This document shows, piece by piece, positions 3,657 to 23,485 of a stretch of DNA of 54,731 bases. The notes beneath the pieces are model-generated. The model saw only the letters and a list, made by a program, of their open reading frames with translations, was not told the origin of the DNA and did not search any database. The position numbers and the translations under genes are program-made. Source of the DNA: an uncultured Pseudomonadota bacterium (GTDB lineage Bacteria; Pseudomonadota; Gammaproteobacteria; Burkholderiales; Methylophilaceae); contig CAIYLB010000076.1 of assembly GCA_903926935.1 (NCBI GenBank), forward strand, positions 1 to 54,731, in the 5' to 3' direction. Every line of letters starts with the position of its first letter. Within the stretch, counting starts at the first letter, position 1.

Positions 3657-3674
3657 TTTTATTTAATGGCCTGA

Positions 3675-7657: not shown

Positions 7658-9396
7658 ATAATTTCCTTCACATCATCAACACTGTCTGGCAAATTATCAG
7701 TAGGGATCACGACATTATTATTTGGCGCATCTTGCGGTATCGCTAACATACGCAGTGCATCGGCCATTACCGCACTGAATACCGGCGCCGCGACTATGCC
7801 GCCATAATACTGGTCGCCTGCCGTGTTTGGCTCATCGATCATAATCGCCATAATCAAGCGTGGATTTGAAGCTGGCGCCATACCAACAAATGAGCCTACA
7901 TACTTATCTTTCTCGTAACCATGTGGTCCTAACTTATGCGTTGTACCAGTTTTACCAGCCACGCGATAACCCATAACCTGCGCTTTTAAGGCTGTGCCAC
8001 CTGGCAATACAACCATTTCTAGCATAGCTTTCATTTCGTTAGCTGTTTTAGCGCTAAAAACTTGGGTACCTACAGGAACGTCTTGCAACTTTAATAATGA
8101 AACTGGTTTTAATTCACCATCATTCGCAAATGCCGTATAAGCCCTAGCCAACTGCAATAATGTCACGCTTATACCATTACCAAATGACATGGTTGCCTGC
8201 TCAATTGGCCGCCATGTTTTGTAATTTCGCACTTGCCCAGCCGCCTCACCGGGGAAGCCAATATGCGTTTTAGCGCCAAAACCCAGTTGATTAAAGGTAT
8301 CCCACATATATTTTTTATCTAAAGTTAGCGCTATTTTTGAGGCGCCTACATTCGATGATTTTTGTATCACTTCTGCTACAGTCAAAATGCCATGCGCATG
8401 AGAATCATGGATAGTCGCTGGGCCTATTTTCAGCGTACCTGGAGCTGTGTTAATTTTAGTATCCGGCTGATATTGGCCAGATTCCAGGCCAGCAGCAACC
8501 GTCACCGGCTTCATGGTAGAGCCAGGCTCAAACATATCAACAATCGCACGATTACGCGTCTTACCTTTAATGTTGATTGGATTGTTAGGGTTGTAAGTAG
8601 GAACATTGACCATCGCTAACACTTCGCCAGTTTTAGCATCTAGCACTATGGCTGCACCAGCCGCAGCCTTATGCAACTCAACCGCCTTGGCCAACTCGCG
8701 ATAAGCTAAATACTGAATTCTGCGGTCAATAGACAACACCACATCATGACCATCTTGCGGTACTTTTACCGCTTCCAAGTCCTCAATAATATGGCCAGAT
8801 CTATCCTTTATCACACGGCGACTGCCTTCTTTACCTGACAATGCGCTATTCATGGCCAGCTCAAAACCTTCTTGACCCGTATCATCCAAGCCGGTAAAGC
8901 CAACCAAGTGCGCAGTAACATCGCCGGCTGGGTAATAACGCTTATATTCGCGTTGCAAATAAATACCTGGCACACCGACTTTCATTACCTGCGCTGCAAG
9001 CTCGGGTGAAATTCTGCGTTTTAAATAGACAAATCCACGCTCACTATTCACCAATTTTTCGCTTACTATTTCTGGCTTCATTTGCAGAATTTCTGCAATC
9101 TGCTTGGTTTGGGTGTCGTTAATTTTAACATCTGGCGGACTAGCCCACACCGACTCAACAGGCGAACTAATTGCCAACAATTCACCATTCCTATCCGTGA
9201 TTTTTCCGCGATGCGCTGACAAAACTAAAGTACGGCTATAACGCGCATCGCCCTTTTCTTGCAAGAATTTTTTATGGAAACTTTGCAAATACAAGCCTCG
9301 TCCTAGTAAGGCAGCAAAGCCCAGCAGCACTACAGCGAGTAGAACGCGGCGGCGCCAGGTTGGCAACTTAACCACTACCAGCATATTCATAGCCAT
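7654..9396 (-). CDS. ftsI: Penicillin-binding protein 3
   Basis: N-terminal TM; STMK (SxxK), SSN and KTG motifs. Confidence 0.97.
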   Translation of the reverse strand: MAMNMLVVVKLPTWRRRVLLAVVLLGFAALLGRGLYLQSFHKKFLQEKGDARYSRTLVLSAHRGKITDRNGELLAISSPVESVWASPPDVKINDTQTKQIAEILQMKPEIVSEKLVNSERGFVYLKRRISPELAAQVMKVGVPGIYLQREYKRYYPAGDVTAHLVGFTGLDDTGQEGFELAMNSALSGKEGSRRVIKDRSGHIIEDLEAVKVPQDGHDVVLSIDRRIQYLAYRELAKAVELHKAAAGAAIVLDAKTGEVLAMVNVPTYNPNNPINIKGKTRNRAIVDMFEPGSTMKPVTVAAGLESGQYQPDTKINTAPGTLKIGPATIHDSHAHGILTVAEVIQKSSNVGASKIALTLDKKYMWDTFNQLGFGAKTHIGFPGEAAGQVRNYKTWRPIEQATMSFGNGISVTLLQLARAYTAFANDGELKPVSLLKLQDVPVGTQVFSAKTANEMKAMLEMVVLPGGTALKAQVMGYRVAGKTGTTHKLGPHGYEKDKYVGSFVGMAPASNPRLIMAIMIDEPNTAGDQYYGGIVAAPVFSAVMADALRMLAIPQDAPNNNVVIPTDNLPDSVDDVKEII

Positions 9397-9731
9397 TAGG
9401 GCGCAACCTCTTGTTGCGCTTGCACAGGTACGTTGAATTGCATGGCAGCCGACGCTTTAGGTGCAACTTCATCAAGCGTGACCAATTGCACACGCTTAGC
9501 ATCAGGCACTTGCATCTGCAATTGCTCTGTAGCAATCGCCTCCACACGTGAGTGCATTGCCCATGTACTTTGCTCTAGTTGCAATTGGCCATATTCTTGA
9601 TCATATTGCTTTGTTAATTGATTAATCTGCTCAAGTTCAATATAACGATTACGCGCTTTATGCTGCGAATTCACTAATCCTAGCGCTGAAAAAATAAGCG
9701 CAAAATACAAGATCATATTTAGCCGAGTCAT
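9396..9731 (-). CDS. ftsL: Cell division protein FtsL
   Basis: Single TM plus coiled coil ([14 protein letters not shown]); lies between rsmH and ftsI. Confidence 0.93.
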
Positions 9732-10837
9732 ATGACGCTGGTTCTTTCTGCTACGCGCAGTACTGCGCTACGTGAGCGCGGATTATGCTTAACTTCCTTA
9801 GCTGATGGCTTAATGGTTTTTCCTACACCGGTTAATTTCGGCTGTGGCAGCTCTGCGGCACGCACTGGGAAATTTGCTGGCAAGTCATCGCGGTTTGCTT
9901 GGTCACGCACAAACTGCTTCACAATACGGTCTTCTAAAGAATGAAAGCTAATCACCGCCAAACGACCTTGTGGCGCCAACAAAGCCAAGCACTGCGGCAT
10001 GGTTAGCGCAAGCTCCTCAAGCTCCTGATTGACGTGAATCCGTAAAGCTTGAAATGTGCGCGTTGCGGGATTCTGGCCGGGCTCAAACCGCGTGACTGCG
10101 CCTGCCACGATCTTGGTAAGTTGCCCCGTAGTGGTGATGGCGCGCCCATCATTGCGCTCCGCAATAATCGCCCTTGCAATCTGCTTAGCAAACCGTTCTT
10201 CACCATAATTTTTTATAACCTCCGCTAAAACTTGCTCTGTTGTACTAGCAAGAAAATCTGCCGCTGTTTTTCCGCTACTTTGATCCATGCGCATATCTAA
10301 TGGCGCATCATATCTAAAACTAAATCCACGGCTTGCTTCGTCTATTTGTGGTGATGAAATCCCCAAATCCAACAAAATTCCATCTACTTTTGAAATACCC
10401 ATATCAGCCAACTCGGCTTGCATACCCGCAAAATGACTATGCACTATGCTAAATCTAGCGTCAGCAATTGCCTTACTCGATTCAATAGCACTTAAATCAC
10501 GATCAAACGCGATCAAGCGGCCATTAGCGCCTAATTGTTCTAATATTTTTTTGGAATGTCCGCCACGACCGAATGTGCCGTCGACATAAATGCCATCTGG
10601 CTTAATAGCCAAGGCTTGCACAGCCTCATCTAACAAAACGGTGACGTGCGAATTTGTAGTAAATGATTCAGAGGAAGAATCGTTTACTAGATTGGTATTT
10701 GAATTTGAGATTAAGTTTGACACGTCTGGCGTTGACTTTTCTAACATTAATGCATCAATTAATGATGCTGATTTTGGAGATACTTTTTTTGCAGACAATA
10801 ATGCTTTGTTGGGCGCACCGTTCACGCCCTTAATCAC
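9728..10837 (-). CDS. rsmH: 16S rRNA m4C1402 methyltransferase (start uncertain, long N-terminal extension)
   Basis: [32 protein letters not shown] and NPRSRSA motifs. Confidence 0.96.
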
Positions 10838-11280
10838 AGCGAGAAACCCTCTAACTCACTCGGCATGACGAAGCTCTCGTCTTGCATCACTTGCGCCAAC
10901 TGAGCGCGCCAAGCGTCTTTGTTCCATAACTCAAAATGACTACCTTGACCGACCAGCATCACCTCTTTATCCAAGCCGGCAAACTCACGTAACACCGGTG
11001 AAATCAACACACGACCTGCGCCATCCAAGCTAACATCCTCAGCAAAACCAACCAACAGGCGCTGCAAGGCACTAGATTGCCTATCAAATGAAGACAAGGC
11101 CATCATCTTCGCCTGAATTGGCTCCCAAGCAGGTTGCGGGTACAACAGCAAGCAGCGATGCGGATGCGCAGTCAACACCAAGTTACCGGCACACTCAAGC
11201 TGCAGAGATTCCCTGTGCCTAGTCGGCACAGCTAACCTGCTTTTTGCATCTAAATTTAATGAGGTTGCACCGCGAAACAT
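10834..11280 (-). CDS. mraZ: dcw cluster repressor MraZ
   Basis: MFRG start; two DxxxR repeats (LDAKSR, LDGAGR). Confidence 0.97.
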
Positions 11281-11350
11281 ATTGTCTTTACTTTCCTTAA
11301 TCCTAAATAAACTTTAAAACTAAAACTATTAAGACGCTGACACAAATTAC

Positions 11351-11384
11351 CCACAAAAACCCACTTTCCCCCACCAAGTTCCAC
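11351..11384 (-). promoter_or_regulatory. MraZ operator: four GTGG boxes at 10-bp phasing
   Basis: CCAC at 11351, 11361, 11371 and 11381 on the + strand; matches known MraZ GTGG/TGGG repeats upstream of mraZ. Confidence 0.85.
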
Positions 11385-11411
11385 TATAAATAAAATAAAG
11401 TTGCAATGCAA
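11383..11411 (-). promoter_or_regulatory. sigma70-type promoter of the dcw cluster
   Basis: TTGCAT-17 bp-TATAGT on the minus strand; the -10 element overlaps the outermost MraZ box. Confidence 0.65.
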
Positions 11412-11886
11412 GCATTTTTTACTAATTTATCTATATATCTCAATGACTTAGCGCATTTTATGCCTAAAAATAAAGTCTATATAAATTAAGTACATACGAA
11501 ATTATGTGAATGTAGATTATTAGAAGAATGATGAAAGCAATTGAATTTAAATTGGAGAGCTAAAGCGGGGTGTATTTACAGAAAATTAAGCAAGATTAAT
11601 CTGTGGCCTGCCGGAAATGCAAGGGATTTTGATGAAAATACCGGCTAAGACCTTAATATAATAAGGGAATTTAATTTTGGCTCTAATACTCGATAAAACT
11701 TACATTTAATATCATGAAGGGTCCAATGCTGGATATAACTGAATTTTAGTGAACTGTGTCAGATTTAGCAGAAGCTACTTACATAAAAAATATCAAAATG
11801 AATTGTTAATCCAATAGATGTCAGCCAAATCAGCAGGCGTTTGGCTATTCATTTTCACTTATCTAAACAAGCATCCAACATCTTTA

Positions 11887-12219
11887 TCAATGGAATAAAG
11901 ACTTTGAGAATAAATTAATCACGACAATTCCAGAGACTATAAGCAACAAACCTATAGTTGCGCCCAAATCTAGTGGCTCCTTAAAATATAACCAGGATAT
12001 AAGTGCTACAAAGCCAACAGCAACGCCAGTCCATATAGCATATGCAATCCCCACTGGTATGTACTTAAGTGTTCTTGATAAAAAATAAATTCCGGTGGTG
12101 TACCCTAAAATAACTAAAATAGAGGGCCTTAAGTTTGTAAATCCAACCGTGTACTTTAACGCCAAAGTGGCTATTATTTCGCAAACAATAGCGACAATGA
12201 GGAATAACCACTTTTCCAT
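11887..12219 (-). CDS. SMR-family small multidrug/cation exporter (EmrE/Qac-like)
   Basis: 110 aa, four TMs, conserved TM1 Glu (AIVCEIIAT), KYTVGF and GIAYAIWTG. Confidence 0.9.
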   Translation of the reverse strand: MEKWLFLIVAIVCEIIATLALKYTVGFTNLRPSILVILGYTTGIYFLSRTLKYIPVGIAYAIWTGVAVGFVALISWLYFKEPLDLGATIGLLLIVSGIVVINLFSKSLFH

Positions 12220-12348
12220 AATTTTCTTTTCTAGAACCTAAACTGTTAATTTTAAAACTTTGGCGAACCAAAAAATACGTCTTAAAACTTAACTTATTAC
12301 AGGACATTGTTAATAATTTTAAGCCGTTATAGATATTTAATATAACCT

Positions 12349-12662
12349 TTAAAATATCTCAACACTGCAATTACATTTTTTTGCAATCGCTTTCATGGCT
12401 GCAAGATTTACTCCGTCATCGAATTTTGGAGTTCCTTTTACAAGACCAAATTTTTTCCACCATTCTACGGTAAGTGCCCAAACTTCACGTGCCTTTCCAT
12501 TTTTCAGTCCTAATGGCGCAATTCCTGGTGTAACACCCATAAGACGGGTCGCTCAGCTAAATCAAAGACTGCCAAACCACCATCTTTGGGTTTGCCGTCC
12601 TTACCTATAACATCTTCGACATCGCTCACTTTAAAACCCAAATTACGAGCAATAATCGCATT
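12349..12662 (-). pseudogene. 3' remnant of an ABC solute-binding protein (probably SsuA/NMT1-like), frameshifted
   Basis: NAIIARNLGFKVSDVEDVIGKDGKPKDGGLAVFDLAE continues after an apparent 1-bp loss near 12551 as TRLMGVTPG...EWWKKFGLVKGTPKFDDGVN; no 5' part or start. Confidence 0.55.
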
Positions 12663-12863
12663 ACGATTAAAACACAGGCATGCCCTACCATTGTTTCTCC
12701 TAACCCAATAGGTATTAAGGGCACTTGGTGGGCAGAAGGTGAAAACCCCAACACCATTACACTTCTTCATGATCAAGATGGCATTCTGCGTGGCTTGTCA
12801 TTAACCGGCGAAGCCATATCACAGAAAAACATACTAACAAAACAGCTACCACCAATTTTATAA
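12660..12863 (+). pseudogene. 3' remnant of an NAD(P)H:rubredoxin reductase (RubB/NorW-like)
   Basis: Frame from 12660 reads ITIKTQACPTIVSPNPIGIKGTWWAEGENPNTITLLHDQDGILRGLSLTGEAISQKNILTKQLPPIL*, resembling the RubB C-terminus (VKTPACP..VSP...G.W...LTG...K..L.K.LP). No start codon; not in the ORF track. Confidence 0.75.
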
Positions 12864-13049
12864 TTGGGCTTTGGATTGGATCAGATTGGAAATATCGTCC
12901 AATCTATCGAATTCGTATCCAGAATATATTTGTATAAATAGGACTAAACACATATCCTGGTAAATAGGTTTACACACCATTAAAAAGCTTCTGGTTTCTA
13001 AGAATTGAGCTTACTAGCAAATTAACTGTAATTGTAAAAACGCCAGCAT

Positions 13050-14051
13050 CTAGATTAACAATTCATTTATTGCAGCGTTAATAAACGCACTTTCATTTGC
13101 AAATCTACCGGGCGCACCAGCGCAGTGGCCCGCCGATGAAAGTATTGGTCTTAATTCTGAATTCGGGCTTAGTGCGGCCTCAATGCTATTTTCTGCAAGA
13201 GTGAAATACTGATCATTATCGCAGGGCATGATAATTGTTTTAGCAGTCACTTGTGATAAAGCTAGCGCTAAGTCACCTTTAAATTTGTCATGAGCGCTGA
13301 CATCTGCATGCTGCCAAGTCCATATCTTAGTTAAAAGATCATTGGCATCCCAGCCCAAATGATCTTGCTCCCAATCTTCTAGTAATGCGTTTATAGAATC
13401 GAAACCGATCTCTTTATAACGCTCCTCGCGAAAGAATTCAGCTGAATAGGCCCAAGGAGCATAGGCTCTGCCAAATGCCCTGAGTCCGGCTGTTGGTTGA
13501 TTGATGTAATTACCATCGGCATAATCAACATCAGCTTGCAAAACGGATCTGATACTTTTGATAAAAATTTCGTTGTATGGCCAACAGCGCGTTGCGCCAC
13601 AAATCGGCAACAAGTTTTTAATCATTTCCGGATATAAAACTGCCCAATGCCAAACCTGCACGGCACCCATTGACCAACCTAATGCCAGCTTAATCTCGTT
13701 AACACCTAAAGCCTTTAACAAGGAGTGCTGGCATACAACGTTATCATAGACTGTGATGTTAGGAAAGCTACCAGCTGGATATCGATCTAAGGAATTACTA
13801 GGTGAAATAGATTGTGCGTTTCCAATCAAATTAGGCGTCACAATAAACCACTTATTGGGGTCTAGCGCCTGACCTTCCCCAATGATGCGAGCGTTTGATA
13901 AGTGATTGCCAGTGTAATAAGTTGGAAAAAGAATGCAGTTGTCTCCAGCTGCATTCAATCTACCCCAAGTAGCGAAAGTAAGCCAAGCATCATGGAGCAC
14001 TTCTCCACTTTGAAGGGTTATATCGCCAATTGAGAATTTTTGAATATGCAT
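13050..14051 (-). CDS. MetX/homoserine acetyltransferase-fold alpha/beta hydrolase
   Basis: TWGRLNAAGDN, GWSMG nucleophile elbow, C-terminal AGH; function probably not methionine synthesis. Confidence 0.8.
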   Translation of the reverse strand: MHIQKFSIGDITLQSGEVLHDAWLTFATWGRLNAAGDNCILFPTYYTGNHLSNARIIGEGQALDPNKWFIVTPNLIGNAQSISPSNSLDRYPAGSFPNITVYDNVVCQHSLLKALGVNEIKLALGWSMGAVQVWHWAVLYPEMIKNLLPICGATRCWPYNEIFIKSIRSVLQADVDYADGNYINQPTAGLRAFGRAYAPWAYSAEFFREERYKEIGFDSINALLEDWEQDHLGWDANDLLTKIWTWQHADVSAHDKFKGDLALALSQVTAKTIIMPCDNDQYFTLAENSIEAALSPNSELRPILSSAGHCAGAPGRFANESAFINAAINELLI

Positions 14052-14055
14052 AAAT

Positions 14056-15426
14056 TTAGAATAGTTTTAAATAACGGTCTTTTTCCCAATCACTCACATG
14101 ATTGTTGTAGCGTAGCCACTCTTCCGTTTTGTAATCTATCCAAGTTGCATGCATACTATTACCAAAAACCTGCTTCGCTAAAGGATCAAGCTTAAACATA
14201 TCAATAGCTTCTTTTAAAGACTGTGGCAGCATCTTGATGTTTAACGCCTCAAGCTCCTCAGTCGTTTTAAGATACATGTTTTCCGTATGCGGTTCGCCTG
14301 GGTCTAATTGCTGCTCTATGCCTTCAAGCCCAGCCGCCAATACCAATGCAGCTCCTAAATATGGATTACACGCACTATCAGCCGCTCGCAATTCAATGCG
14401 ACCGCCGCCCATCGGGATGCGTAGCGTGTTGGTACGATTATTGTCACCATAGCAGGCGAACACTGGGGCCCAAGTAAATCCAGACATACTACCTTTCAAT
14501 ACAAGTCGTTTGTAGCTATTCACCGTCGGAGCTACTGCGGCGCAAATTGCAGGCAAATGCTTCAACACACCAGCCATAAATTGATAACCTAATTTAGATA
14601 AGTTGCAGCCACGTGGGTCATTAGCTTCTTCAAATAGGTTTTTTCCGGTGACCTTATCTGCCAGTGACATGTTGAAGTGAGCTCCACTTCCGGCACGGTC
14701 ACCAAAAGGTTTAGGCATAAATGTCGCAAATCCGCCATGACGGCGTGCGACTTCATTGGCCATTAAGCGGAAAAATACAAAATTATCGGCCATGGTTAAG
14801 GCATCAAAATATTTGAAGTCGATTTCAAATTGTCCAATACCATCTTCGTGGTCTAATGAATAAACATCCCAGCCTAGTTCATTCATATATTTGACTAGTT
14901 CACGCATCCAATCCATATTATCTAGCAGGCGCGCGACGTCATAAGCAGGTTTATCTAAATGCTTGCGTGTTGATAGCGGTGAATAGCCACCATCTGCATC
15001 ATCCTTTAATACAAAAAACTCCGCCTCTATACCCAAATTCATGCGAAAACCCATCGCATCGGCCTTTGCTAATACATTTTTTAAAATAGTACGGCTGCAA
15101 GCCTCGAATGGCTCACCTTTAGTCCATAAGTCACTGGCAAACCAAGCAATTTCTTTATCCCAGGGCAATATCTTGCAGGAGCCTGGGTCAGGATGTGCGG
15201 CCACCTCCTCATCGCTTACATCTTGTGGCACACCTTCTAAAGCTGCACCAGTACATAATTCCGATCCTGACATCATGCGTTTATAATGCGCAATCGGCAC
15301 CATTTTTGACTTAGATACGCCATGTATGTCAACATAGCTTGCCAACATAAATTCAACCCCAGCCGCTTGCATTGCCTCTACATCGTTGCCGATATTGGCA
15401 GTTTCTGCTTGTTTTGTAACTTCCAT
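14056..15426 (-). CDS. GlnT-type (type III) glutamate--amine ligase, glutamine synthetase superfamily
   Basis: GIEAEFF, DHEDGIGQFE, FMPKP, GSGAHFN, NSYKRL, NNRT and ELR motifs. Confidence 0.85.
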   Translation of the reverse strand: MEVTKQAETANIGNDVEAMQAAGVEFMLASYVDIHGVSKSKMVPIAHYKRMMSGSELCTGAALEGVPQDVSDEEVAAHPDPGSCKILPWDKEIAWFASDLWTKGEPFEACSRTILKNVLAKADAMGFRMNLGIEAEFFVLKDDADGGYSPLSTRKHLDKPAYDVARLLDNMDWMRELVKYMNELGWDVYSLDHEDGIGQFEIDFKYFDALTMADNFVFFRLMANEVARRHGGFATFMPKPFGDRAGSGAHFNMSLADKVTGKNLFEEANDPRGCNLSKLGYQFMAGVLKHLPAICAAVAPTVNSYKRLVLKGSMSGFTWAPVFACYGDNNRTNTLRIPMGGGRIELRAADSACNPYLGAALVLAAGLEGIEQQLDPGEPHTENMYLKTTEELEALNIKMLPQSLKEAIDMFKLDPLAKQVFGNSMHATWIDYKTEEWLRYNNHVSDWEKDRYLKLF

Positions 15427-15508
15427 TATTTTCTAACCTTTAAGAGTTTCAGAACGAACCAATGATTGAAATACTTCAAATCTTGCTTGCAAGTTTTAAT
15501 CTGAACAC

Positions 15509-15609
15509 ATTTGGCTTAGGCGATTAATAGCAGTCTAATTTACAGAATTATATTCACTGTAAACCAGACGCCACAGACTCTAAAAGAACATAAAATCACC
15601 TAGCCAAAT
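15509..15609 (-). other. About 100-nt intergenic RNA hairpin
   Basis: AUUUGGCUAGGUGAUU/AAUCGCCUAAGCCAAAU outer stem and GUCUGGUUUACAG/CUGUAAAUUAGAC inner stem; stem mismatches are G-U only on the mRNA strand. Confidence 0.7.
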
Positions 15610-15641
15610 ATATTGCACCTTAGATAAACTATGACGAGAAA

Positions 15642-16640
15642 TTAATAGGCTTTATACAATGAAGGGTCAATGGCCTTGTCAATGTTTTGCGGACCTTTGT
15701 AAATGGCATTTTTTACATTAAAGTCATCAGAAATTTTAGATGAACCATAAATTGACTTTAAGCCATCCGCTTTCACAAACACGGCTTTACCTTCTTTTAA
15801 AGAGAGCAACCTAGTGCCTTTTAAGAACGTTTGATACTCAGTAGGTTTGAGGCCAACACGTGCAGACATGATTTTCACAGCATCTGCCTGAGTTTTAGGG
15901 TCATTAATATAGTCAACAACTTTACCCCAAACACCGACCACTTTTTTCCAATCCTCTTTACGATTTGAGAAGCTAGATGGACTCACTGTAAATACATCAT
16001 AAATTAGGCCCGGCGCTTGAGCTGAGGTGAAGATAGGTTTTGATCCATGAACAAGTTTTAAAGCTTGTCCTGCACTTGGTTGAAACACACCAATTGCCGC
16101 CAAATCGCCAGAAGCTAGTGCTTGTGGGGTGTCGTTGATTTTAACGTTCAAAAGCGTAACATCAGATTCTTTCATGCCAGCTTTCTCCAAACCATAGAGA
16201 AGTAAAAGATGATCAACGATGCCTAATTCCGTACCAACTTTCTTACCTTTTAAGTCTTTAAAACTTTCGACACCAGGCTTACCAATGATCATATCGTTAC
16301 CATTAGAGTAATCTGTAATCAGAACGATGACATTTTTACCCCCACCCGCACCCATGACCAAGGCGTCACCATTAGTCACGCCTACGCTGTCAAGCTTGCC
16401 GGCACTAAAAGCCTCGATTGAAGCGCCATAATCAAACCATTCAAATTTAACGTCAACGCCGGCTTCTTTAAACCAACCTTTCTCGATGGCAACCTGCCAT
16501 GCAACAAAACCTGGCCAATCGCTGTAACCTATTTTTAATGGTTGTGCGGCTTGGCTAATATTGCTAAAAGCAAAGGCTAAAGGAACAGCTGCTGTAATAA
16601 TCAGTTTTTTGAAACTTAAAACTTTTAAACGGGATTTCAT
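15642..16640 (-). CDS. ABC transporter solute-binding protein, SsuA/TauA/NMT1 type
   Basis: Signal peptide ending SQA; IGYSDWPG and DYSNGND motifs; AGGAG RBS. Confidence 0.88.
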   Translation of the reverse strand: MKSRLKVLSFKKLIITAAVPLAFAFSNISQAAQPLKIGYSDWPGFVAWQVAIEKGWFKEAGVDVKFEWFDYGASIEAFSAGKLDSVGVTNGDALVMGAGGGKNVIVLITDYSNGNDMIIGKPGVESFKDLKGKKVGTELGIVDHLLLLYGLEKAGMKESDVTLLNVKINDTPQALASGDLAAIGVFQPSAGQALKLVHGSKPIFTSAQAPGLIYDVFTVSPSSFSNRKEDWKKVVGVWGKVVDYINDPKTQADAVKIMSARVGLKPTEYQTFLKGTRLLSLKEGKAVFVKADGLKSIYGSSKISDDFNVKNAIYKGPQNIDKAIDPSLYKAY

Positions 16641-16710
16641 TGTTGCTCTCCTAATTAAATGTAACCAAAAAACTACTTTCTAAACGTTAGTGCTGCCAAA
16701 ACACCCTTCA

Positions 16711-17421
16711 TTAAACCAATGAAAAGTTTAATATTTGTCCCTCGCGAAAAGGCAAGGTAGAGTGATTAATTCTGCCGTGCGACGCGTCTACGATGTCACC
16801 AAACGAAATTTCAAAATCCAGCCAATTAAGTATGTCCAATAGACTTTGATTTGGGCTATCAATTAACGCCAATAAACTGCTCGCTTCTGGTAGATTTGAA
16901 CTACGTGGCCGAATAAAGGCAAACTGATTACCTGCTTTTAAAAGACGTGCGATCACCACAACACCATTTGAATCGAGGCTATTAATTTGGTGCGTACTCA
17001 CGTTGATGTGAGTACCTGCTATTTTGTCCCAAACCTCAAAGTAGACACTCTCTACGCCCGTCTCTAATAGTTTGTTTTCACCACTAAATACCATCTCACC
17101 AATATCCGGAACACCATTATCTGGCTGTAAATCTAGTTCACGGTGCCAATTACATATGTTGCCGCTCACTTCTGTTACGCCTGCAAAACCCTGCTGCGTC
17201 GCCAACCAACGCAATTGTTCCGTAGAGCAATCTTGCAAGCAGGTACAGTCTGAAAAATCTGGCCGTAATGCAGGAATACGTATATCTATATGTTGATTAT
17301 CGGCCTGTAACCAAAATACCAACGAAGTCGTATCCTGACTACCGTTCTGCTCAAGTAAACTTCTACGCCATACACCTAGGTAAGAAGCCGGCACCGCTAT
17401 CAATTTATTTAGTGGGTTCAT
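16711..17421 (-). CDS. Uncharacterised protein, Hri1-like by pattern; paralog of 20596..21567
   Basis: GVWRR..DTTSLVFWLQ...IDIRIP...GFAG...W.RELD..P...DIG...E.G...YFEVW; ATG at 17421 overlaps the upstream stop. Confidence 0.7.
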   Translation of the reverse strand: MNPLNKLIAVPASYLGVWRRSLLEQNGSQDTTSLVFWLQADNQHIDIRIPALRPDFSDCTCLQDCSTEQLRWLATQQGFAGVTEVSGNICNWHRELDLQPDNGVPDIGEMVFSGENKLLETGVESVYFEVWDKIAGTHINVSTHQINSLDSNGVVVIARLLKAGNQFAFIRPRSSNLPEASSLLALIDSPNQSLLDILNWLDFEISFGDIVDASHGRINHSTLPFREGQILNFSLV

Positions 17422-18200
17422 AGGTGATACTCGGGGAAAACCTTTAATGTTCTCCAAAAAGCCATATCGTGGTTTGGCCATAACTCAGCTTTTTCAGACT
17501 TAGCCAGAGATTTTAGCTTGCGAATACTAGCAATCGCCAACTCCGTTTGACCTTGCCAACAGTTTCCTGGGGCGATTTCATCGACTATATTTTCAGTTAA
17601 ATCGGCAGCATCACCGGCCAAGATAATAGGTGCGCCAGTGGGCATTTCTATCCACAATGACATATGACCCGCGGTATGCCCTGGACTAGCTATTGCGTGC
17701 ACACCTGCCGTTAAATTATATTCGCCCTTTTTCACTTTCCAGTTTGCTTGAGCAACGATTTCATTATCAAAATAGGCTAAATCATCACGAGGATTCGCTG
17801 AGGCCAACTCGTCGGCTTGAACATGCACCTCCGCCCCACATAAATCACATAAGCCGCCGGCATGATCAAAGTGCAAATGCCCTAAGAACACAACATCAAT
17901 ATCCTGTACCGATAATCCTAGACGCGCTAGTTGGCGTGGCAAGCGTTGCGACTCATCCATATCGGGTGCGCCAAAACTAAATACTTCTGGGTTATAGTAT
18001 TTTTCTCGCTGTGAGGCATCTGCTATTTTATTGTAGTCACATCCAACATCGTACAAAATACGACCATTTCTGGTCTCGATTAAGTAGGCTAAAATTGGCG
18101 CTTCTATCATCTGTCCAGCCCCGCGATTATGCGTAGATAAAGATTTATCATAACGGTGGGTAGCGGTTAAAATCGGCCAAACTTTGGTAACGGCAGTCAT
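17418..18200 (-). CDS. Metallo-beta-lactamase-fold hydrolase, AHL-lactonase-like family
   Basis: HLHFDH, PGHTAGH, AGDA and PNHD metal ligands. Confidence 0.88.
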   Translation of the reverse strand: MTAVTKVWPILTATHRYDKSLSTHNRGAGQMIEAPILAYLIETRNGRILYDVGCDYNKIADASQREKYYNPEVFSFGAPDMDESQRLPRQLARLGLSVQDIDVVFLGHLHFDHAGGLCDLCGAEVHVQADELASANPRDDLAYFDNEIVAQANWKVKKGEYNLTAGVHAIASPGHTAGHMSLWIEMPTGAPIILAGDAADLTENIVDEIAPGNCWQGQTELAIASIRKLKSLAKSEKAELWPNHDMAFWRTLKVFPEYHL

Positions 18201-18210
18201 GGTTTTATTC

Positions 18211-19248
18211 TCACAGTGCCGTCAAGAAAGAAACACCCGCAGCACCAATAAAAGCATTCGCACTAGCATTGCTGATAACTCCATAATCATCACTTTGAAG
18301 TCTAGTAATCCTATGGCAATGGTAGGCGCTCATAAGCTTGATCATTGGAATGACAGGCAACAAGTCCAAATCACCATACAACTTTTTATGAAGAGCTGGC
18401 AATTGATGCCAAGGCACTTTTGGTTTTTCGTGATGCGCGTTGTGATAGGGGAAATTTAAAAATAATAGGTTTAACCAAGGATATTTCAGTGAGGCTAAAT
18501 TTGAATAGGTATTCGCTTGTTCGTAAGCACGATCACGAAGCTTTCCGTCTTTAACTTTACCGCCGAACCGCGCAAGATCAGATTCTAAAAAAACATCATA
18601 TGTATGTTGAAAAGCATCAGCAAATCTAAGCGCAGTGAGCATGACGCAGTAAGCTAGCAGATATAGTAGCCATGCTTTAACAGACACCCATGCCATAAGA
18701 ACAAATATGGATGCTCTAAGAGAAAAAATTATAATTAATCTTAAGCGCTTATGGTGCCATTCTGATTTAATAAATGGCAAGATAATGACTAAAAAGTGCA
18801 TGAGTATTTCAATCGCTGGAATATACATCCACTCCAAAGCTTTGATAAGGTTTCTAGCCGCCGTCGGCATATCGCGCATCACATGCTGCACATTAAAAGT
18901 AAGTACATCCGCACGATCAGCATGATGATGCATGTGTTTATCACGAATCTCTTTGAAGGTGCTGTAGCAACTACCATTCACCCATGACAAGACAGTGCCC
19001 CACGTTTTATTTGTTTTAGGTGATTTAAACAAACTCCAATGTGATAACTCATGCAGTAAATAAGCACTAATAATCAATGCCTCAGCAGTGACTAGTACAC
19101 CAGCAAAATTAACTAGCCAATGTTCTGAAAAAAGCATAAAAATACCGATCGGGTAACCAAATAATACGAATGAGAATACCGCAGAATTTTTAAGCAGATC
19201 GAGGTTAAGCTTACGCTCAAGCACTTCTATAGATTTGATAACAGACAT
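18211..19248 (-). CDS. Membrane di-iron fatty-acid-desaturase-superfamily enzyme
   Basis: Three His boxes HELSH, HMHHH and HNAHH, plus QH; hydrophobic segments. ATG at 19248 preferred, since the track's TTG start lies inside the riboswitch expression platform. Confidence 0.85.
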   Translation of the reverse strand: MSVIKSIEVLERKLNLDLLKNSAVFSFVLFGYPIGIFMLFSEHWLVNFAGVLVTAEALIISAYLLHELSHWSLFKSPKTNKTWGTVLSWVNGSCYSTFKEIRDKHMHHHADRADVLTFNVQHVMRDMPTAARNLIKALEWMYIPAIEILMHFLVIILPFIKSEWHHKRLRLIIIFSLRASIFVLMAWVSVKAWLLYLLAYCVMLTALRFADAFQHTYDVFLESDLARFGGKVKDGKLRDRAYEQANTYSNLASLKYPWLNLLFLNFPYHNAHHEKPKVPWHQLPALHKKLYGDLDLLPVIPMIKLMSAYHCHRITRLQSDDYGVISNASANAFIGAAGVSFLTAL

Positions 19249-19266
19249 AATATATCCACAGTATTT

Positions 19267-19310
19267 AAAAGCCAAAAAGACAATATTAGAATTCAGTCTC
19301 CCGGGCTTTT
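19267..19310 (-). terminator. Putative riboswitch expression platform (terminator competing with the aptamer 3' end)
   Basis: AAAAGCC-C-GGGAGAC of the aptamer can pair with downstream GUCUUUU-U-GGCUUUU. Confidence 0.7.
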
Positions 19311-19392
19311 ATCCCTCCGTGTAGCCAGTTTTAATTGGCCGAGAACTCTTGGACCAGACATTTTTATAAAAAAACCGGAACCCTAGCTCTCT
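19298..19392 (-). ncRNA. Guanidine-I (ykkC-yxkD) riboswitch aptamer
   Basis: Minus strand GAGAGCUAGGGUUCCGG...GUCUGGUCCAAGAGUUCUC-GGCCA..UGGCU-ACACGGAGGGAUAAAAGCCCGGGAG; P1 closes GAGAGC/GUUCUC. Confidence 0.95.
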
Positions 19393-19444
19393 TTTTTAAA
19401 GCAGGTAGATGTGAGTGTTAAATTGAACTACCTAAATTAATATT

Positions 19445-19460
19445 AGCAATGAACGTGCCA
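19445..19460 (-). promoter_or_regulatory. sigma54 -24/-12 promoter, operon A
   Basis: TGGCAC-GTTCA-TTGCT, exact consensus, about 50 bp upstream of the aptamer. Confidence 0.88.
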
Positions 19461-19488
19461 CTTTTTGTTAATTAACTTTATCTATTAA

Positions 19489-19501
19489 AATCAGTGTGTT
19501 G
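19489..19501. promoter_or_regulatory. IHF-like site
   Basis: AATCAGTGTGTTG fits WATCARNNNNTTR and lies between the sigma54 promoter and the candidate enhancer. Confidence 0.5.
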
Positions 19502-19545
19502 TAAATACCATGAAGCAAAAGTTGGATTTCACATATAGATTATGG

Positions 19546-19582
19546 CGCATTATTTAAGTGCACCGTTTTAAAATATGCACCA
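19546..19582. promoter_or_regulatory. NtrC-like enhancer sites
   Basis: 17-bp CGCATTATTTAAGTGCA (19546-19562) and half-site TGCACCA (19576-19582), compared with consensus TGCACCANNNTGGTGCA. Confidence 0.55.
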
Positions 19583-19710
19583 ATATTTTTAGGTTTACCT
19601 AAATAACATTAAACATCTACTTCTTAAATTTACAATGAATAGAATCAATACAAACTTAAAATAAAATTGTGAGGCATAATGAATTTTTAAAAAGCAGGTT
19701 GGGATTTTAA

Positions 19711-20595
19711 ATGCAATCAACAGCGAAATTTTGGCAAAACTGGCAAGAGTTCAGGTCTGCTCAACAAGAAATTATTCTACCGGCTGGCCAAGTCGCGCAC
19801 ACACAAGTTTCTATCCGCTATATAGACATAGGTGTCGACATACACGGCACAATTCTTTTGATGCACGGCATACCAACATGGGGATTTATCTACCATGAAG
19901 TAATTCCACTATTGGTAAAATCTGGCTACCGTGTGATCGCTCCTGACTTTTTAGGTCACGGATGGTCTGATCGTAGAGACTGTTTTGACCGATCTTTTCA
20001 AGATCAAGCAAAGATGATCGTTGCATTATTATCGGCAATCAACATAAAAAGTGTGCATGTTGTTGGGCACGATACTGGAGGTGCAGTAGCACTTATTCTA
20101 GCAATAGAACACCAACAATATGTGCGCCATCTTATAATTTCAAACGCAGTTTGCTACGATCGTTTTGATGATGATATGCTAGATTTTGGCCACCCACTCA
20201 GATGGAAAGCGCGCCCATTGAAAGACCTTGTGGATACTCTAGAACTTAGCCTTGCCATGGGAGTTTCTAACAAGAATCGACTTACGCCAGAGTTTAGACA
20301 AGGCATCATTGCGCCTTGGGCGAGTGAGGAAGGAAAGTTGAGCCTGCTTCGAAATGCATCAGCCCTTAATGCAAACCAGACCATGGCACTGGTCGATCGC
20401 CATGGCAAAATTACAGCTAAGACGATGATTCTTTGGGGAATGGATGACCCTTGGCAGAAATCAGAAGATGGCCAACAACTCGCTCAAGAAATTCCAGGAG
20501 CCATATTCAAAGGCATTTATGGCGCTTCGCATTGGCTACAACAAGACTCACCTGCAGAGTTTACTGAGGCACTTCTGGATTTTTTTCATCCTTAA
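19711..20595 (+). CDS. Alpha/beta hydrolase, epoxide hydrolase/haloalkane dehalogenase-like
   Basis: HGIP, PDFLGHGWS, GHDTGG (Asp nucleophile), WGMDD and SHW. Confidence 0.85.
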   Translation: MQSTAKFWQNWQEFRSAQQEIILPAGQVAHTQVSIRYIDIGVDIHGTILLMHGIPTWGFIYHEVIPLLVKSGYRVIAPDFLGHGWSDRRDCFDRSFQDQAKMIVALLSAINIKSVHVVGHDTGGAVALILAIEHQQYVRHLIISNAVCYDRFDDDMLDFGHPLRWKARPLKDLVDTLELSLAMGVSNKNRLTPEFRQGIIAPWASEEGKLSLLRNASALNANQTMALVDRHGKITAKTMILWGMDDPWQKSEDGQQLAQEIPGAIFKGIYGASHWLQQDSPAEFTEALLDFFHP

Positions 20596-21567
20596 CTAAA
20601 GTACTTTTGTATAGCGTGACATAGTCGATGATTCACGTTCAAACCAAGATTCTGCCTCATGAGTAAAAGCGGTCGACTGGCTAAAGTCAACATGGGATTC
20701 AAGCGTATCAATAGAAAAAATTCGTTCGCAGGGCACGCCTGCAACGGTTAGTTTTTGGCGAACAACATCCATTACTGCCGAATTTCCATACTGATATTGA
20801 GTTATGCACTCAAATCCTTCTAAGCAAAATAAATCTTGCCCCATCCGGGATGCTTGTGTTGAATGGATCACGTTAAAACCTTGCTGAACCGAGCCTTTAG
20901 CCACGGAGGTCTCAAAGTTTAATAAACTTGTCAAAAGTCCAATATCACCACTAGCATTTGCGACCAAACTCTTAAGCGTGGCCCCTGGCACCTTATTAAA
21001 AAATTCTGGCCCACGTCCTAACACCAATCCAGCATAGTCTCCGCAGACTATTAATCCACCACCGCTATGTCGAACTTCTCCGGTGGAAAGATTACGCTCT
21101 TCTATCAGATTTAGCCCCACCAACGGCCCCGAACTAGAAGGCTGTAAACGCCAATCTTCAACATAAGCATCGCTAGGGCAAAACTCAACCATACAATTAC
21201 CAACACGCTTTAATATGGCCGGCTCGGTCCAGCGATTGTGCAGTTGGAATGAAGCATTAGCTTCCTGCCAACTTAATATTTCGCCATCCCAGTCTGAAGC
21301 CGCTAACCAGCCCTCATAGTTGGCAACTTGCTGTAACTCATCTTCAGAATACTCAAGCAAAGGCTTCGCTACTACTTGGTCAGCATCACGAGGCAAACGA
21401 AGGTCAATGCTAAAGTTACGACTCTGTAACCAGCACACATGTGTTTTAAGGTCAGTCATACCATTAGCAAAACTAATCGAATAACGCTTAAAGAAACCCA
21501 GCATCCAATCAGGTACACTATGCTCAGGGCGTTTACCATGTAGCTCGACTAGTTCTTGCAGCTTCAT
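20596..21567 (-). CDS. Uncharacterised protein coupled to the 2OG dioxygenase; candidate hydroxymethyl-guanidine lyase
   Basis: Start overlaps the dioxygenase stop; VCWLQ...IDLRLP and YVEDW motifs shared with 16711..17421. Function is inference. Confidence 0.65.
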   Translation of the reverse strand: MKLQELVELHGKRPEHSVPDWMLGFFKRYSISFANGMTDLKTHVCWLQSRNFSIDLRLPRDADQVVAKPLLEYSEDELQQVANYEGWLAASDWDGEILSWQEANASFQLHNRWTEPAILKRVGNCMVEFCPSDAYVEDWRLQPSSSGPLVGLNLIEERNLSTGEVRHSGGGLIVCGDYAGLVLGRGPEFFNKVPGATLKSLVANASGDIGLLTSLLNFETSVAKGSVQQGFNVIHSTQASRMGQDLFCLEGFECITQYQYGNSAVMDVVRQKLTVAGVPCERIFSIDTLESHVDFSQSTAFTHEAESWFERESSTMSRYTKVL

Positions 21568-22637
21568 TTAGTTAGCTCCACAGATTCTAAATGAGATTGC
21601 GGCTTATGCCCAAAAGATGACAACCCTTTTGCGCCATCGGGTAATACCAAGGCACCATTAGCTAGACGATTTTTGAGATAGGCAAAGGTTTGCATAGTTT
21701 GTGCATATAGATGCTCCCCACATACTATCGGTTTATAGTGCGAAGGCTTATCTGTCGATAAAAGTGATTCTATAGGCTTTATCACCGTGTCATAATCACA
21801 TGCGCAGAACAATGGAAACGAGTAGCGCTCCTGCTTTACTTTTCTTACCCTATGCATGGTTGCGACGAAATATCCATTGCTTAACACTTCCAGCATGTCA
21901 CCAATATTGATAACAAAAGCTCCACTTACAACTGGCGCATCGATCCACTCCATGGCGCCATTCTGGACCTCCAAACCATCCTCGGTGGCTAGCAGAATGG
22001 TGAAACATTCGTAATCTGTGTGGGCTCCTATTCCAGGCCTATCTTCTGGGGCCGCTGGACTAAAAGGATAATGCACAAGTCGCAATTGACTTGGTGGCGC
22101 AGTGACTTTATTGGTGAAATAATCTTCTGGCAGATTCAAGGCCAAAGCAAAGCCTCGGAATAGCGCATTACTTAACGCAAAAACTGCATCGTAATAGGCC
22201 TTGACATCTTCTTTAAATCTAGGGAAATCTGGCCAGCGATTTGGGCCTAACATTGGTCTACGTACTTCTGACTGCTTAAGATCAAAACCAACATCGTAAG
22301 CTTCTTTGAGATCTGGCTTGGCTGAAAGATACTGCTCTTCGCCCTCAGGGACATAGCCACTGTGATTGGAAGAGTTGCCTATATAATCCTGCATCTTTTG
22401 CTCATAGGTCTGAGAAAAATATTCACGAGTGCGTGTCTTGAGATTTTCAATCAAATCTTGCTGCACACCATGTCCTACAATGTAAAGAAAACCTGCATCA
22501 CGTGCTGCATTTCCAAGTGCTTTTGCAGCTTCCTTACGTTCGGTAAGATCGGATGAAAATAATAAAGAGATATCTATCAGTGGTAGTTTCTTAAAGGCTG
22601 TATGTGGGCGAACCGGACTAATCTGAACTTCAGACAT
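21564..22637 (-). CDS. 2-oxoglutarate/Fe(II) dioxygenase, IPNS-like family
   Basis: LPLIDIS, GFLYIVGHG, HTD...H facial triad (HTDYEC, MHRV) and RYS; ATG at 22637 after an AAAGGA RBS. Confidence 0.92.
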   Translation of the reverse strand: MSEVQISPVRPHTAFKKLPLIDISLLFSSDLTERKEAAKALGNAARDAGFLYIVGHGVQQDLIENLKTRTREYFSQTYEQKMQDYIGNSSNHSGYVPEGEEQYLSAKPDLKEAYDVGFDLKQSEVRRPMLGPNRWPDFPRFKEDVKAYYDAVFALSNALFRGFALALNLPEDYFTNKVTAPPSQLRLVHYPFSPAAPEDRPGIGAHTDYECFTILLATEDGLEVQNGAMEWIDAPVVSGAFVINIGDMLEVLSNGYFVATMHRVRKVKQERYSFPLFCACDYDTVIKPIESLLSTDKPSHYKPIVCGEHLYAQTMQTFAYLKNRLANGALVLPDGAKGLSSFGHKPQSHLESVELTK

Positions 22638-22658
22638 GCTAAATCCTTTCAAAAGTAT

Positions 22659-22764
22659 CTGGTCGTCCAGTTGAGGTTTGTTGAGCTAATAAAATCTAAC
22701 AAAGCACATAACCGACATATTTTTGCTCTTATGCTCGCTAAGAACCATCCTAGGTCGTCCCAGG
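22659..22764 (-). ncRNA. Guanidine-II (mini-ykkC) riboswitch-like hairpin pair with long linker
   Basis: P1 CCUGGG-ACGA-CCUAGG (22749-22764) and P2 CUGG-ACGA-CCAG (22659-22670), with P2 just ahead of the RBS; 78-nt linker. Confidence 0.75.
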
Positions 22765-22789
22765 CAAGATAAATGTTAATATTTATTAA

Positions 22790-22805
22790 AGCAATGTATA
22801 TGCCA
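22790..22805 (-). promoter_or_regulatory. sigma54 -24/-12 promoter, operon B
   Basis: TGGCAT-ATACA-TTGCT, 25 bp upstream of hairpin P1. Confidence 0.8.
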
Positions 22806-23146
22806 AACATATAGCAGACTGCTAGATGTGAATTTTCGTTTTTATTTTGTAGTGGGCAAAACACTTCATTTAAGGCGAATTAGCCCTTATGATTAGAATA
22901 GCGCGAGTAAATCTTACTATTCATACTAGGAGCAGCATATTCTATTCATTAATTTCTTGGTACATTAGCATGCGTGACGCACCAAATTGAAGCCATCTTG
23001 GGGATTCATCTGAGAAGAGCTAACCGCAAAAACATACCAATCGAGCCAGCATTTGGCTTGCCCCTCAAATAGATAAGCTAAAGCTCATTATGCACACGTC
23101 AAAGCTGATTATTCGTATGTGAAAGTGACAATTAAAGAGTGAGAGT

Positions 23147-23485
23147 GAAGCTGGCCGATAAGCCGGGTTCTGTAGGCCTTATTACTAAGGCTGACAGTCA
23201 TTCATCTAGGCGCACAATTACTTGTACGCTCAAGCAACCTACCCGCTGGCAGCGCGAACCACGCCTTATTAACCGAAGTTAAAGCGCCAGCCTATTTGGT
23301 CTTGCTGCGAATGGAGGTTACCGCGTTTCACCGTAACTTAATACGCTCGTCTCTGTGGCCCTATTCCGCGCCTTATACTTGGTTGCCCAAGCTTTCAACG
23401 TACGGCCGTTAGCCGTCATCCCGCTCTATGCAGCCCGGACTTTCCTCCCCTCACTTACGTGAGCGGCGACTGTCTAGCCAGCTTC
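23147..23485 (-). ncRNA. rnpB: RNase P RNA, class A
   Basis: GAAGCUGGC ends pair; GAGGAAAGUCCGGGC and ACAGAACCCGGCUUA universal motifs. Confidence 0.98.

Follow-up and report, generated by a model that had tools for sequence, protein, structure and literature searches.

Two guanidine-linked operons, each pairing an oxygenase with an MgdL-family lyase, form a probable upstream arm of the guanidine carboxylase pathway in a Methylophilaceae bacterium

The window analyzed here is a contig of 54,731 nucleotides (CAIYLB010000076.1, assembly GCA_903926935.1) from an uncultured bacterium of the Methylophilaceae. Between rnpB (positions 23143 to 23485) and mraZ it carries a lineage-specific insertion (11281 to 23142) with two minus-strand operons, A and B, each headed by a sigma54-type motif, and a plus-strand alpha/beta hydrolase gene between them. 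In operon B the motif is followed by twin hairpins of the guanidine-II type, a 2-oxoglutarate (2OG)/Fe(II) dioxygenase gene, and a gene whose product we call HypB. In operon A it is followed by a guanidine-I aptamer and by genes for a membrane di-iron desaturase-fold oxygenase (Des), a metallo-beta-lactamase (MBL) hydrolase, HypA, a substrate-binding protein (SBP), a GlnT-type ligase, and a MetX-fold hydrolase ending at 13050. An earlier sequence-only reading of this DNA had described two minus-strand operons, each with a sigma54-type motif, an oxygenase gene, and a copy of one hypothetical protein, and had listed the additional genes of operon A; all are present as described. We think it probable that the island is an upstream arm of the guanidine carboxylase pathway, in which the oxygenase and MgdL-family lyase of each operon together release guanidine.

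The paralogous proteins, which the sequence-only reading had taken to be uncharacterized, belong to the MgdL lyase family, characterized in 2025 (PMC12508155). In the portions of that paper available to us, the 2OG dioxygenase MgdH hydroxylates methylguanidine and MgdL, formerly a hypothetical protein, splits the hemiaminal into guanidine and formaldehyde; catalysis by MgdL uses D49 and R51, D112 and E126 were modelled on the guanidino group, and the characterized organism, which is not a methylotroph, could not use methylguanidine as a carbon source. A search of metagenomes for the V. boliviensis mgdH gene by its published primer gave 0 matches, and for this reason a Halomonas-type gca operon (locus L186), recognized by the gene order in PMC12508155, served as a proxy for the characterized pair. 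All identities to MgdH and MgdL given here are to this proxy, whose lyase sequence resembles the uppermost rows of the alignment in the accessible part of that paper. HypA (16711 to 17421, minus strand) keeps all four named pocket residues (D46, R48, D106, and E120) and is 35% identical to the L186 lyase (E = 2e-32), above the 30% that we had set, together with the four residues, as the mark of an MgdL. HypB (20596 to 21567, minus strand) keeps the catalytic Asp and Arg and the E126 equivalent, has Glu in place of D112, carries a C-terminal extension, and falls in a separate clade of the same superfamily. The two are recognizably paralogous (31% identity over 87 amino acids; E = 4e-8), and the equivalents of D49, R51, and E126 are invariant in 25 of 25 aligned lyases. 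The L186 lyase groups with the Des-linked lyases and not with HypB (split 100/99, long branch). HypB was present in 3 of 201 family genomes, and PDB sequence searches with both lyases returned no match. We assign HypA and HypB, from their sequences, as MgdL-family hemiaminal lyases. A more distant 2OG dioxygenase and MgdL-family pair, with no riboswitch motif, occurs at positions 8805 to 10384 of locus L187, where it adjoins what appear by eye to be polyamine ABC transporter genes and an agmatinase-like gene; this pair suggests that the lyase family also serves other hemiaminals.

The dioxygenase of operon B (21564 to 22637, minus strand), of the MgdH clade, is a 2OG/Fe(II) enzyme by Pfam assignment, and its H206-x-D208, H262, and R271 provide the HxD...H and RxS motifs of the fold. 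It is 53% identical to the dioxygenase of the L186 gca operon, shares a clade with it (100/100), and is followed by an MgdL-family gene; no close match at an E value of 1e-90 or below was found in 300 order-level genomes. By these features operon B is to be placed with a known kind, the published MgdH/MgdL pair, and taken alone it would be a modest extension of published work. Its substrate may differ from methylguanidine because its dioxygenase subclade is separate, HypB is remote from MgdL, and the closer MgdL relative sits with Des. The proposal in the sequence-only reading that the oxygenases dealkylate substituted guanidines thus agrees with published MgdH/MgdL chemistry, of which operon B is an apparent example, and extends to operon A as a prediction. 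Deacylation and the supply of C1 fragments to methylotrophy, also suggested in that reading, are conjectural.

Des (18211 to 19248, minus strand) matches PF00487 and has four histidine-box motifs (HELSH66, HMHHH105, QH214, and HNAHH269). A confident structure model (pLDDT, 81.6) gave weak matches to the desaturase superfamily, including AlkB (TM scores of 0.36 to 0.39, E values of about 1 to 2), and a PDB search with a desaturase profile gave no match. There is precedent for a membrane di-iron oxygenase acting on a small polar substrate in the rhizopine demethylase MocD. Des was found in 16 of 201 family genomes, and a scan of one genome per species identified 275 relatives; the 80 best were taken as loci (27 of them from Methylophilaceae by title), and these are not independent, some genomes giving two or three loci. 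A guanidine-I 3' motif or a gca, cgd, or atzF gene was present in 74 of these 80 loci and in 50 of the 51 with full flanks, and five of the six loci without such a link end close upstream. The guanidine-I motif, for which our pattern gave two matches in the window's own genome, equal to the Rfam count, lay within 1.6 kb upstream of Des in 42 of the 80. FA_desaturase is the sole family label of Des, and a homologue on a plasmid, with 30% identity, is part of an unrelated cluster, as might be expected of an ordinary lipid desaturase with an incidental guanidine association. The guanidine link, which spans several proteobacterial families, the fixed pairing with a hemiaminal lyase, and scores far under the lipid-desaturase equivalog cut-offs all argue against this explanation, which we regard as very improbable. 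In one Des locus (L043, genome G014), the Des, lyase, GlnT, dioxygenase, and cgdA genes seem frameshifted or shortened (2405 to 13061), through either decay or assembly error. Our literature searches, which mostly leave out subscription journals, found no paper on the Des module or operon A, and the consulted portions of a review (PMC12186494) and of PMC11018352 did not mention the module. Operon A is therefore undescribed in the literature searched but widely conserved, and the earlier statement that it matches no known pathway stands.

The partners of Des were informative about its probable role. Among the 80 loci, genes for an MBL hydrolase (57 loci), an MgdL-family lyase (56), a creatininase-like protein (43), a BiuH-like protein (40), and a short-chain dehydrogenase/reductase (SDR) (34) recurred, compared with 17 loci with GlnT, 3 with a 2OG dioxygenase, and none with MetX (isolate and metagenome-assembled genomes). 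The oxygenases and lyases occur in several combinations: 2OG dioxygenase with MgdL (L186), Des with MgdL, 2OG dioxygenase with HypB (the window, L166, L167, L190, and L193), and a second desaturase with HypB (L065). It is mainly because oxygenase classes swap ahead of the same lyases that we assign to Des an MgdH-like reaction. The swapping would also suit a simpler scheme in which Des is a 2OG-independent stand-in for MgdH and the two operons, working in parallel as the sequence-only reading had suggested, each convert methylguanidine (or dimethylguanidine) to guanidine and formaldehyde by demethylation. The grouping of the characterized-type L186 lyase with Des-linked lyases and the four pocket residues of HypA speak for such a scheme, as does the narrowness for N-(hydroxymethyl)guanidine reported for MgdL in the accessible text of PMC12508155. 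It leaves the creatininase, lactonase, SDR, and BiuH-like partners unexplained, and the loci with two oxygenases suggest different steps: an MgdH-clade enzyme shares an operon with Des in L041/L067, L043, and L055, downstream and in a place comparable to that of the second desaturase found in 11 of the 80 loci (9 by a stricter search; the L107 row, in the wrong reading frame, was disregarded in the tree). We consider the stand-in scheme unlikely. No locus had both a second desaturase and an MgdH-clade enzyme, which at 11 and 2 of 80 loci is not significant and serves only as a hint.

The creatininase-like partners offered the best indication of a substrate. Among the 57 Des loci with at least 5 kb of downstream sequence, 31 had MBL only, 14 had both MBL and a creatininase of the true clade, 10 had the true-clade creatininase only, and 2 had neither. 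All nine creatininases tested (8 of the 29 true-clade genes and one from L191) passed the creatininase equivalog model TIGR04448, with scores of 358 to 381 against a cut-off of 235, and one Des-linked creatininase matched the solved creatininase 1j2t (E = 2e-75). The four creatininase-like proteins tested that are linked to GlnT all fell below the TIGR04448 cut-off. Stutzerimonas tarimensis and Paraburkholderia mimosarum are among the species whose loci have the creatininase type of operon. Because relatives link the module to creatininase and some layouts have two oxygenases, we place the substrate of operon A most readily in the creatinine/creatine/guanidinoacetate series; even granting the upstream-arm explanation, this choice falls somewhat short of an even chance. 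The ring-opening and amide hydrolases that accompany Des (lactonase, BiuH/RutB-like, and creatininase) might instead indicate some other cyclic or oxidized guanidine (a guanine or pterin oxidation product, a 2-aminopyrimidine, or 2-iminoimidazolidine) opened by a hydrolase after hydroxylation, and an origin of guanidine from oxidized guanine is proposed in the part of PMC12623156 that we consulted. Against this, all nine partner creatininases tested pass their equivalog cut-off, and no hydantoinase-type or purine gene recurred among the first 25 clusters of unassigned neighbors. Such a substrate seems to us distinctly unlikely.

Four further genes complete operon A. The MBL protein (17418 to 18200, minus strand) is a metallo-hydrolase of the N-acyl-homoserine lactone (AHL)-lactonase fold with its metal motifs (HLHFDH and GHTAGH) intact, and it scored far under the equivalog cut-offs for AiiA (135 versus 375 bits) and 4-pyridoxolactonase (136 versus 325 bits). 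The SBP (15642 to 16640, minus strand) shares 68% identity with its counterpart in the guanidine ABC importer of this genome, and the window encodes no permease or ATPase for it. GlnT (14056 to 15426, minus strand) is a gamma-glutamyl-amine ligase of the GmaS/GlnT type with an altered amine pocket. It scores 550 bits against TIGR03105 (cut-off, 469.6), has the GmaS-type Trp flap (GFTWAP), lacks an equivalent of Asp50', and has two extra acidic residues in the Asp50' loop; Ser and Asp replace Gln175 and Asn188 of GmaS in 30 of 30 rows of its clade, some of them redundant. It is 39% identical to the genome's own GmaS, encoded on contig C154 with genes read by eye as mgs/mgd, a context that GlnT lacks along with the Q175/N188 pocket. 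An ordinary ammonia-using glutamine synthetase was ruled out by the Trp in place of the Glu flap and the missing Asp50'. A plain GmaS duplicate was likewise rejected. The pocket is consistent with an amine bulkier and more cationic than methylamine. The MetX-fold hydrolase (13050 to 14051, minus strand; GWSMG125, D, and H309) belongs to subfamily PRK07581 (NF005757, above cut-off), is closest among solved structures to 5d6o and 5e4y, and scores 145 against the cut-off of 500 for homoserine O-acetyltransferase MetX; most of its homologues with identities near 40% are found in unrelated contexts.

GlnT and MetX also travel without Des. In genome G462, a GlnT-MetX pair (89% and 72% identity) follows atzF in a riboswitch-led gca operon, and in G376 and G417 such a pair follows a binding protein. 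Sister GlnT proteins in Methylophilaceae gca operons are paired with a creatininase-like hydrolase, not MetX, and GlnT occurs in gca operons with no desaturase within the fetched 18 to 19 kb (L151, L216, L218, L220, L221, and L225). The scan's single match to the order seen in the window is a metagenome contig (L194) with a sigma54 motif, guanidine-I element, Des, lyase, SBP, partial GlnT, and MetX and without MBL. The GlnT/MetX tail is thus a separable accessory module, not core to the oxygenase module. GlnT would be central to a carrier-assisted scheme in which it glutamylates a guanidine or methylamine, Des hydroxylates the conjugate, the lyase frees the aldehyde, and the glutamate is then taken off by either MBL or MetX. 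All of the parts are in one operon here and, except for MBL and with GlnT partial, in L194; the Trp flap, Ser/Asp pocket, and extra acids of GlnT would suit it, and a glutamylation-first route for 1-naphthylamine is described in the excerpted PMC11335346. The rarity of GlnT and absence of MetX among the 80 Des loci, together with the GlnT genes in gca operons that have no desaturase nearby, lead us to consider it improbable. This scheme, the MgdH stand-in, and the cyclic substrates, which differ from our preferred explanation in substrate or order, partly overlap with it. At positions 6826 to 10658 of L214, a GlnT-clade ligase (73%) and a creatininase-like hydrolase lie behind a permease passing the trimethylamine N-oxide (TMAO)-permease cut-off, which hints at a link of the clade to methylated amines. 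In gca operons of relatives, the gene after GlnT is often one for a NikR-like ribbon-helix-helix protein (L039, L040, and L220 to L225; Pfam assignment on the L062 copy).

Two guanidine riboswitch classes had been proposed for the island. The first is clear: the leader of operon A contains a guanidine-I aptamer (19296 to 19397, minus strand; RF00442, 95.4 bits against a cut-off of 63, model positions 1 to 107) whose 3' tail is predicted by folding to pair with downstream sequence. The second needs qualification. The leader of operon B (22659 to 22764, minus strand) has two GG-ACGA-CC hairpins (P1, 22764 to 22749; P2, 22670 to 22659) with ACGR loops and two closing G-C pairs, just 5' of the ribosome-binding site. 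Their 78-nt linker exceeds the 7 to 40 nt that, with two ACGR hairpins, defines the class in the portion of PMC5558903 consulted, and Rfam model RF01068 had no match in the window or the genome. Twin hairpins also precede orthologous dioxygenase operons, with a short linker in L188, L190, and L193 and a long one in L166; none precede the orthologue in L167. The three short-linker elements likewise score under the RF01068 gathering threshold, which the element before gca in L186 passed. The operon B leader is likely a long-linker guanidine-II variant. Another pair of ACGA hairpins, also missed by RF01068, lies ahead of gca in the cgdB-gca spacer of the same genome (contig C245).

The sigma54-type -24/-12 motifs (TGGC-N-TTGC) of operon A (19445 to 19460, minus strand) and operon B (22790 to 22805, minus strand) are the only two in the window, where about one is expected from the genome rate (42 in 2.23 Mb). 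They carry weight because they stand directly ahead of each riboswitch and recur ahead of related operons (for operon B, the orthologues in L166, L167, and L193). The genome encodes an NtrC scoring above cut-off. A strict search for NtrC boxes (at most 3 mismatches) found no site at either promoter; a degenerate site (19546 to 19562, minus strand), at -102 from the operon A motif and with 5 mismatches, is not significant alone. Several related promoters have better NtrC-like boxes 79 to 110 bases upstream. Because of the five mismatches in the window's own site, we only infer nitrogen control.

The sequence-only reading had noted that no carboxylase gene is present. This is true of the window, and elsewhere in the genome a sigma54 motif and a second guanidine-I riboswitch head a complete ABC-cgdA-cgdB-gca-atzF operon, which spans contigs C33, C245, and C144 with overlaps of 141 exact bases. 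No arginase-fold gene was found in the genome, which is 95% complete. Genome G188 (L167 and L030) has the gca operon in one uninterrupted cluster with operon B, the alpha/beta hydrolase, and Des-MBL-lyase, and for this reason the island has the look of a rearranged part of one guanidine super-cluster.

From these genes, motifs, families, and contexts we infer the reactions, substrates, and regulatory responses of our preferred explanation. Nitrogen limitation and guanidine would turn on operons A and B. The oxygenase of each would hydroxylate the carbon beside a guanidino nitrogen, and the MgdL-family lyase would split the hemiaminal into a guanidine and an aldehyde. Free guanidine would induce the operons, and the carboxylase operon would degrade it to ammonia. 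The MgdH-clade dioxygenase of operon B would act on methylguanidine or a close analogue, and Des on a different or earlier substrate, so that the two operons may work in sequence rather than in parallel. The lactonase-fold enzyme would open a ring or remove an acyl group, and GlnT and the MetX-fold hydrolase would glutamylate and release a cationic intermediate, either an amine or a guanidine. The consulted part of PMC12623156 cites an old pathway from creatinine to methylguanidine in Stutzerimonas stutzeri and treats guanidine release by such routes as unsettled. We tentatively put forward a more specific reading, which as a whole we think will probably not hold in every part: that an oxidative route from creatinine or creatine to guanidine, so far undescribed, has operon A at its core. 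In that combined reading, a ring-opening hydrolase, the di-iron oxygenase, and the MgdL-type lyase might yield methylguanidine and glyoxylate; an interchangeable second oxygenase (the desaturase paralogue or MgdH) might then take off the methyl group; the GlnT clade might be the first gamma-glutamyl-guanidine ligases; and the operon B leader might be a long-linker guanidine-II riboswitch.

Several observations weigh against the upstream-arm explanation or its creatinine form, besides the dependence among the Des loci mentioned above. For operon B, the dioxygenase lies in its own long-branch subclade, with HSGY replacing HRGY and a loop deletion; a close relative of it was present in only one of five desaturase-bearing genomes checked; HypB is remote from MgdL (26% identity over 106 amino acids and E = 5e-4 against the L186 lyase); and the guanidine-II-type element fails Rfam and folds no more stably than shuffled sequences (z, 0.07 and -0.57). 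For operon A, Foldseek with the Des model gave no match at an E value of 0.001 or below, and the operon encodes no electron-transfer partner for a di-iron enzyme. Neither a creatininase (PF02633) nor a BiuH-like or close SDR partner was found in the window's own genome at its 95% completeness, and no Methylophilaceae Des locus has a true creatininase; it is relatives farther away that provide the creatinine link.

The earlier designation of the region as an island is borne out: rnpB adjoins mraZ, with about 1 kb or less between them, in 12 of 12 same-genus genomes, compared with 11.9 kb here. The G+C content of the insertion is 40.8%, versus 45.3% in the left flank and 42.3% genome-wide, and there is no integrase among its ten long open reading frames. 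The oxygenase genes most likely start at 19248 (Des) and 22637 (dioxygenase), and hypA most likely at 17421, in an ATGA overlap with the MBL stop codon. Operon A is likely a single transcript because the 215-base gap between the SBP and GlnT genes contains no terminator-like match; sigma70 promoter and terminator scans otherwise gave results at chance level. The haloalkane-dehalogenase-like alpha/beta hydrolase (19711 to 20595, plus strand) accompanies the cluster in two relatives (L167 and L071), where homologues 76 to 77% identical lie beside guanidine operons, and it is possibly part of the guanidine regulon. A small multidrug resistance (SMR) exporter gene within the insertion (11887 to 12219, minus strand) has no riboswitch, and its product is Qac/EmrE-like rather than Gdx/SugE-like (121.9 bits with the Qac model versus 56.8 with the SugE model, both under cut-off). 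Two overlapping short frames at 12349 to 12797 (minus strand; 95 and 67 amino acids stop to stop), which the lower limit set in the sequence-only reading takes in, with no Pfam match and a single copy in the genome, are probably a frameshifted gene remnant.

It is still not understood why guanidine sensing is so common among bacteria or which natural compounds the guanidine is derived from, and the accessible portions of PMC12508155 describe the natural origin of methylguanidine as elusive. Genes under guanidine riboswitches are the best leads to such sources, and this locus points to a conserved uncharacterized oxygenase family that is linked with a known lyase and, in a large number of relatives, also with a true creatininase. 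If our explanation is correct, a membrane enzyme of the di-iron type would be added to those that N-dealkylate small polar substrates, and nitrogen from animal-derived creatinine could be recycled by way of guanidine. The creatinine form, if true, would moreover fill in a biological source of methylguanidine that has been lacking and assign genes to an old orphan activity of Pseudomonas stutzeri that converts creatinine to methylguanidine.

Compared with known systems, the island is closest to the MgdH/MgdL pair. It shares with that pair the succession of a 2OG dioxygenase and a beta-barrel lyase with a D-x-R catalytic pair, guanidine-I and guanidine-II elements, and a product that would feed the gca/cgdAB/atzF pathway of the genome. 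It differs in that the pair has a sigma54 operon of its own, in which the dioxygenase belongs to a divergent subclade, the lyase is longer and only remotely related, and the twin hairpin has a long linker. It also differs in that the closer MgdL relative is joined to Des, the lactonase-fold MBL protein, GlnT, and the MetX-fold protein, partners that did not come up in the portions of PMC12508155 consulted. Like GmaS (PDB 7cql and 9qur; PMC7948447, consulted in part), GlnT has Trp for the Glu flap, lacks Asp50', and keeps the equivalents of Y147, D177, E179, E186, and K30'; it differs in Gln175 to Ser, Asn188 to Asp, the extra loop acids, its guanidine-operon home, and its hydrolase partner. 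Des shares four His-box motifs and a helical membrane fold with the AlkB/desaturase superfamily, in which no close characterized or solved relative was found. The creatininase/creatinase route leads from creatinine through creatine to sarcosine and urea. In relatives of operon A a true creatininase-clade enzyme is present, but it is joined there to an oxygenase and a lyase behind a guanidine riboswitch, and this arrangement suggests guanidine, not urea, as the product. With the guanidine carboxylase pathway (Gca, CgdAB, AtzF, and the ABC importer), the island shares its regulon logic and a closely similar binding protein, and in many relatives the operon A genes lie inside the gca operon; here the island is without the core enzymes and would be an accessory arm of that pathway.

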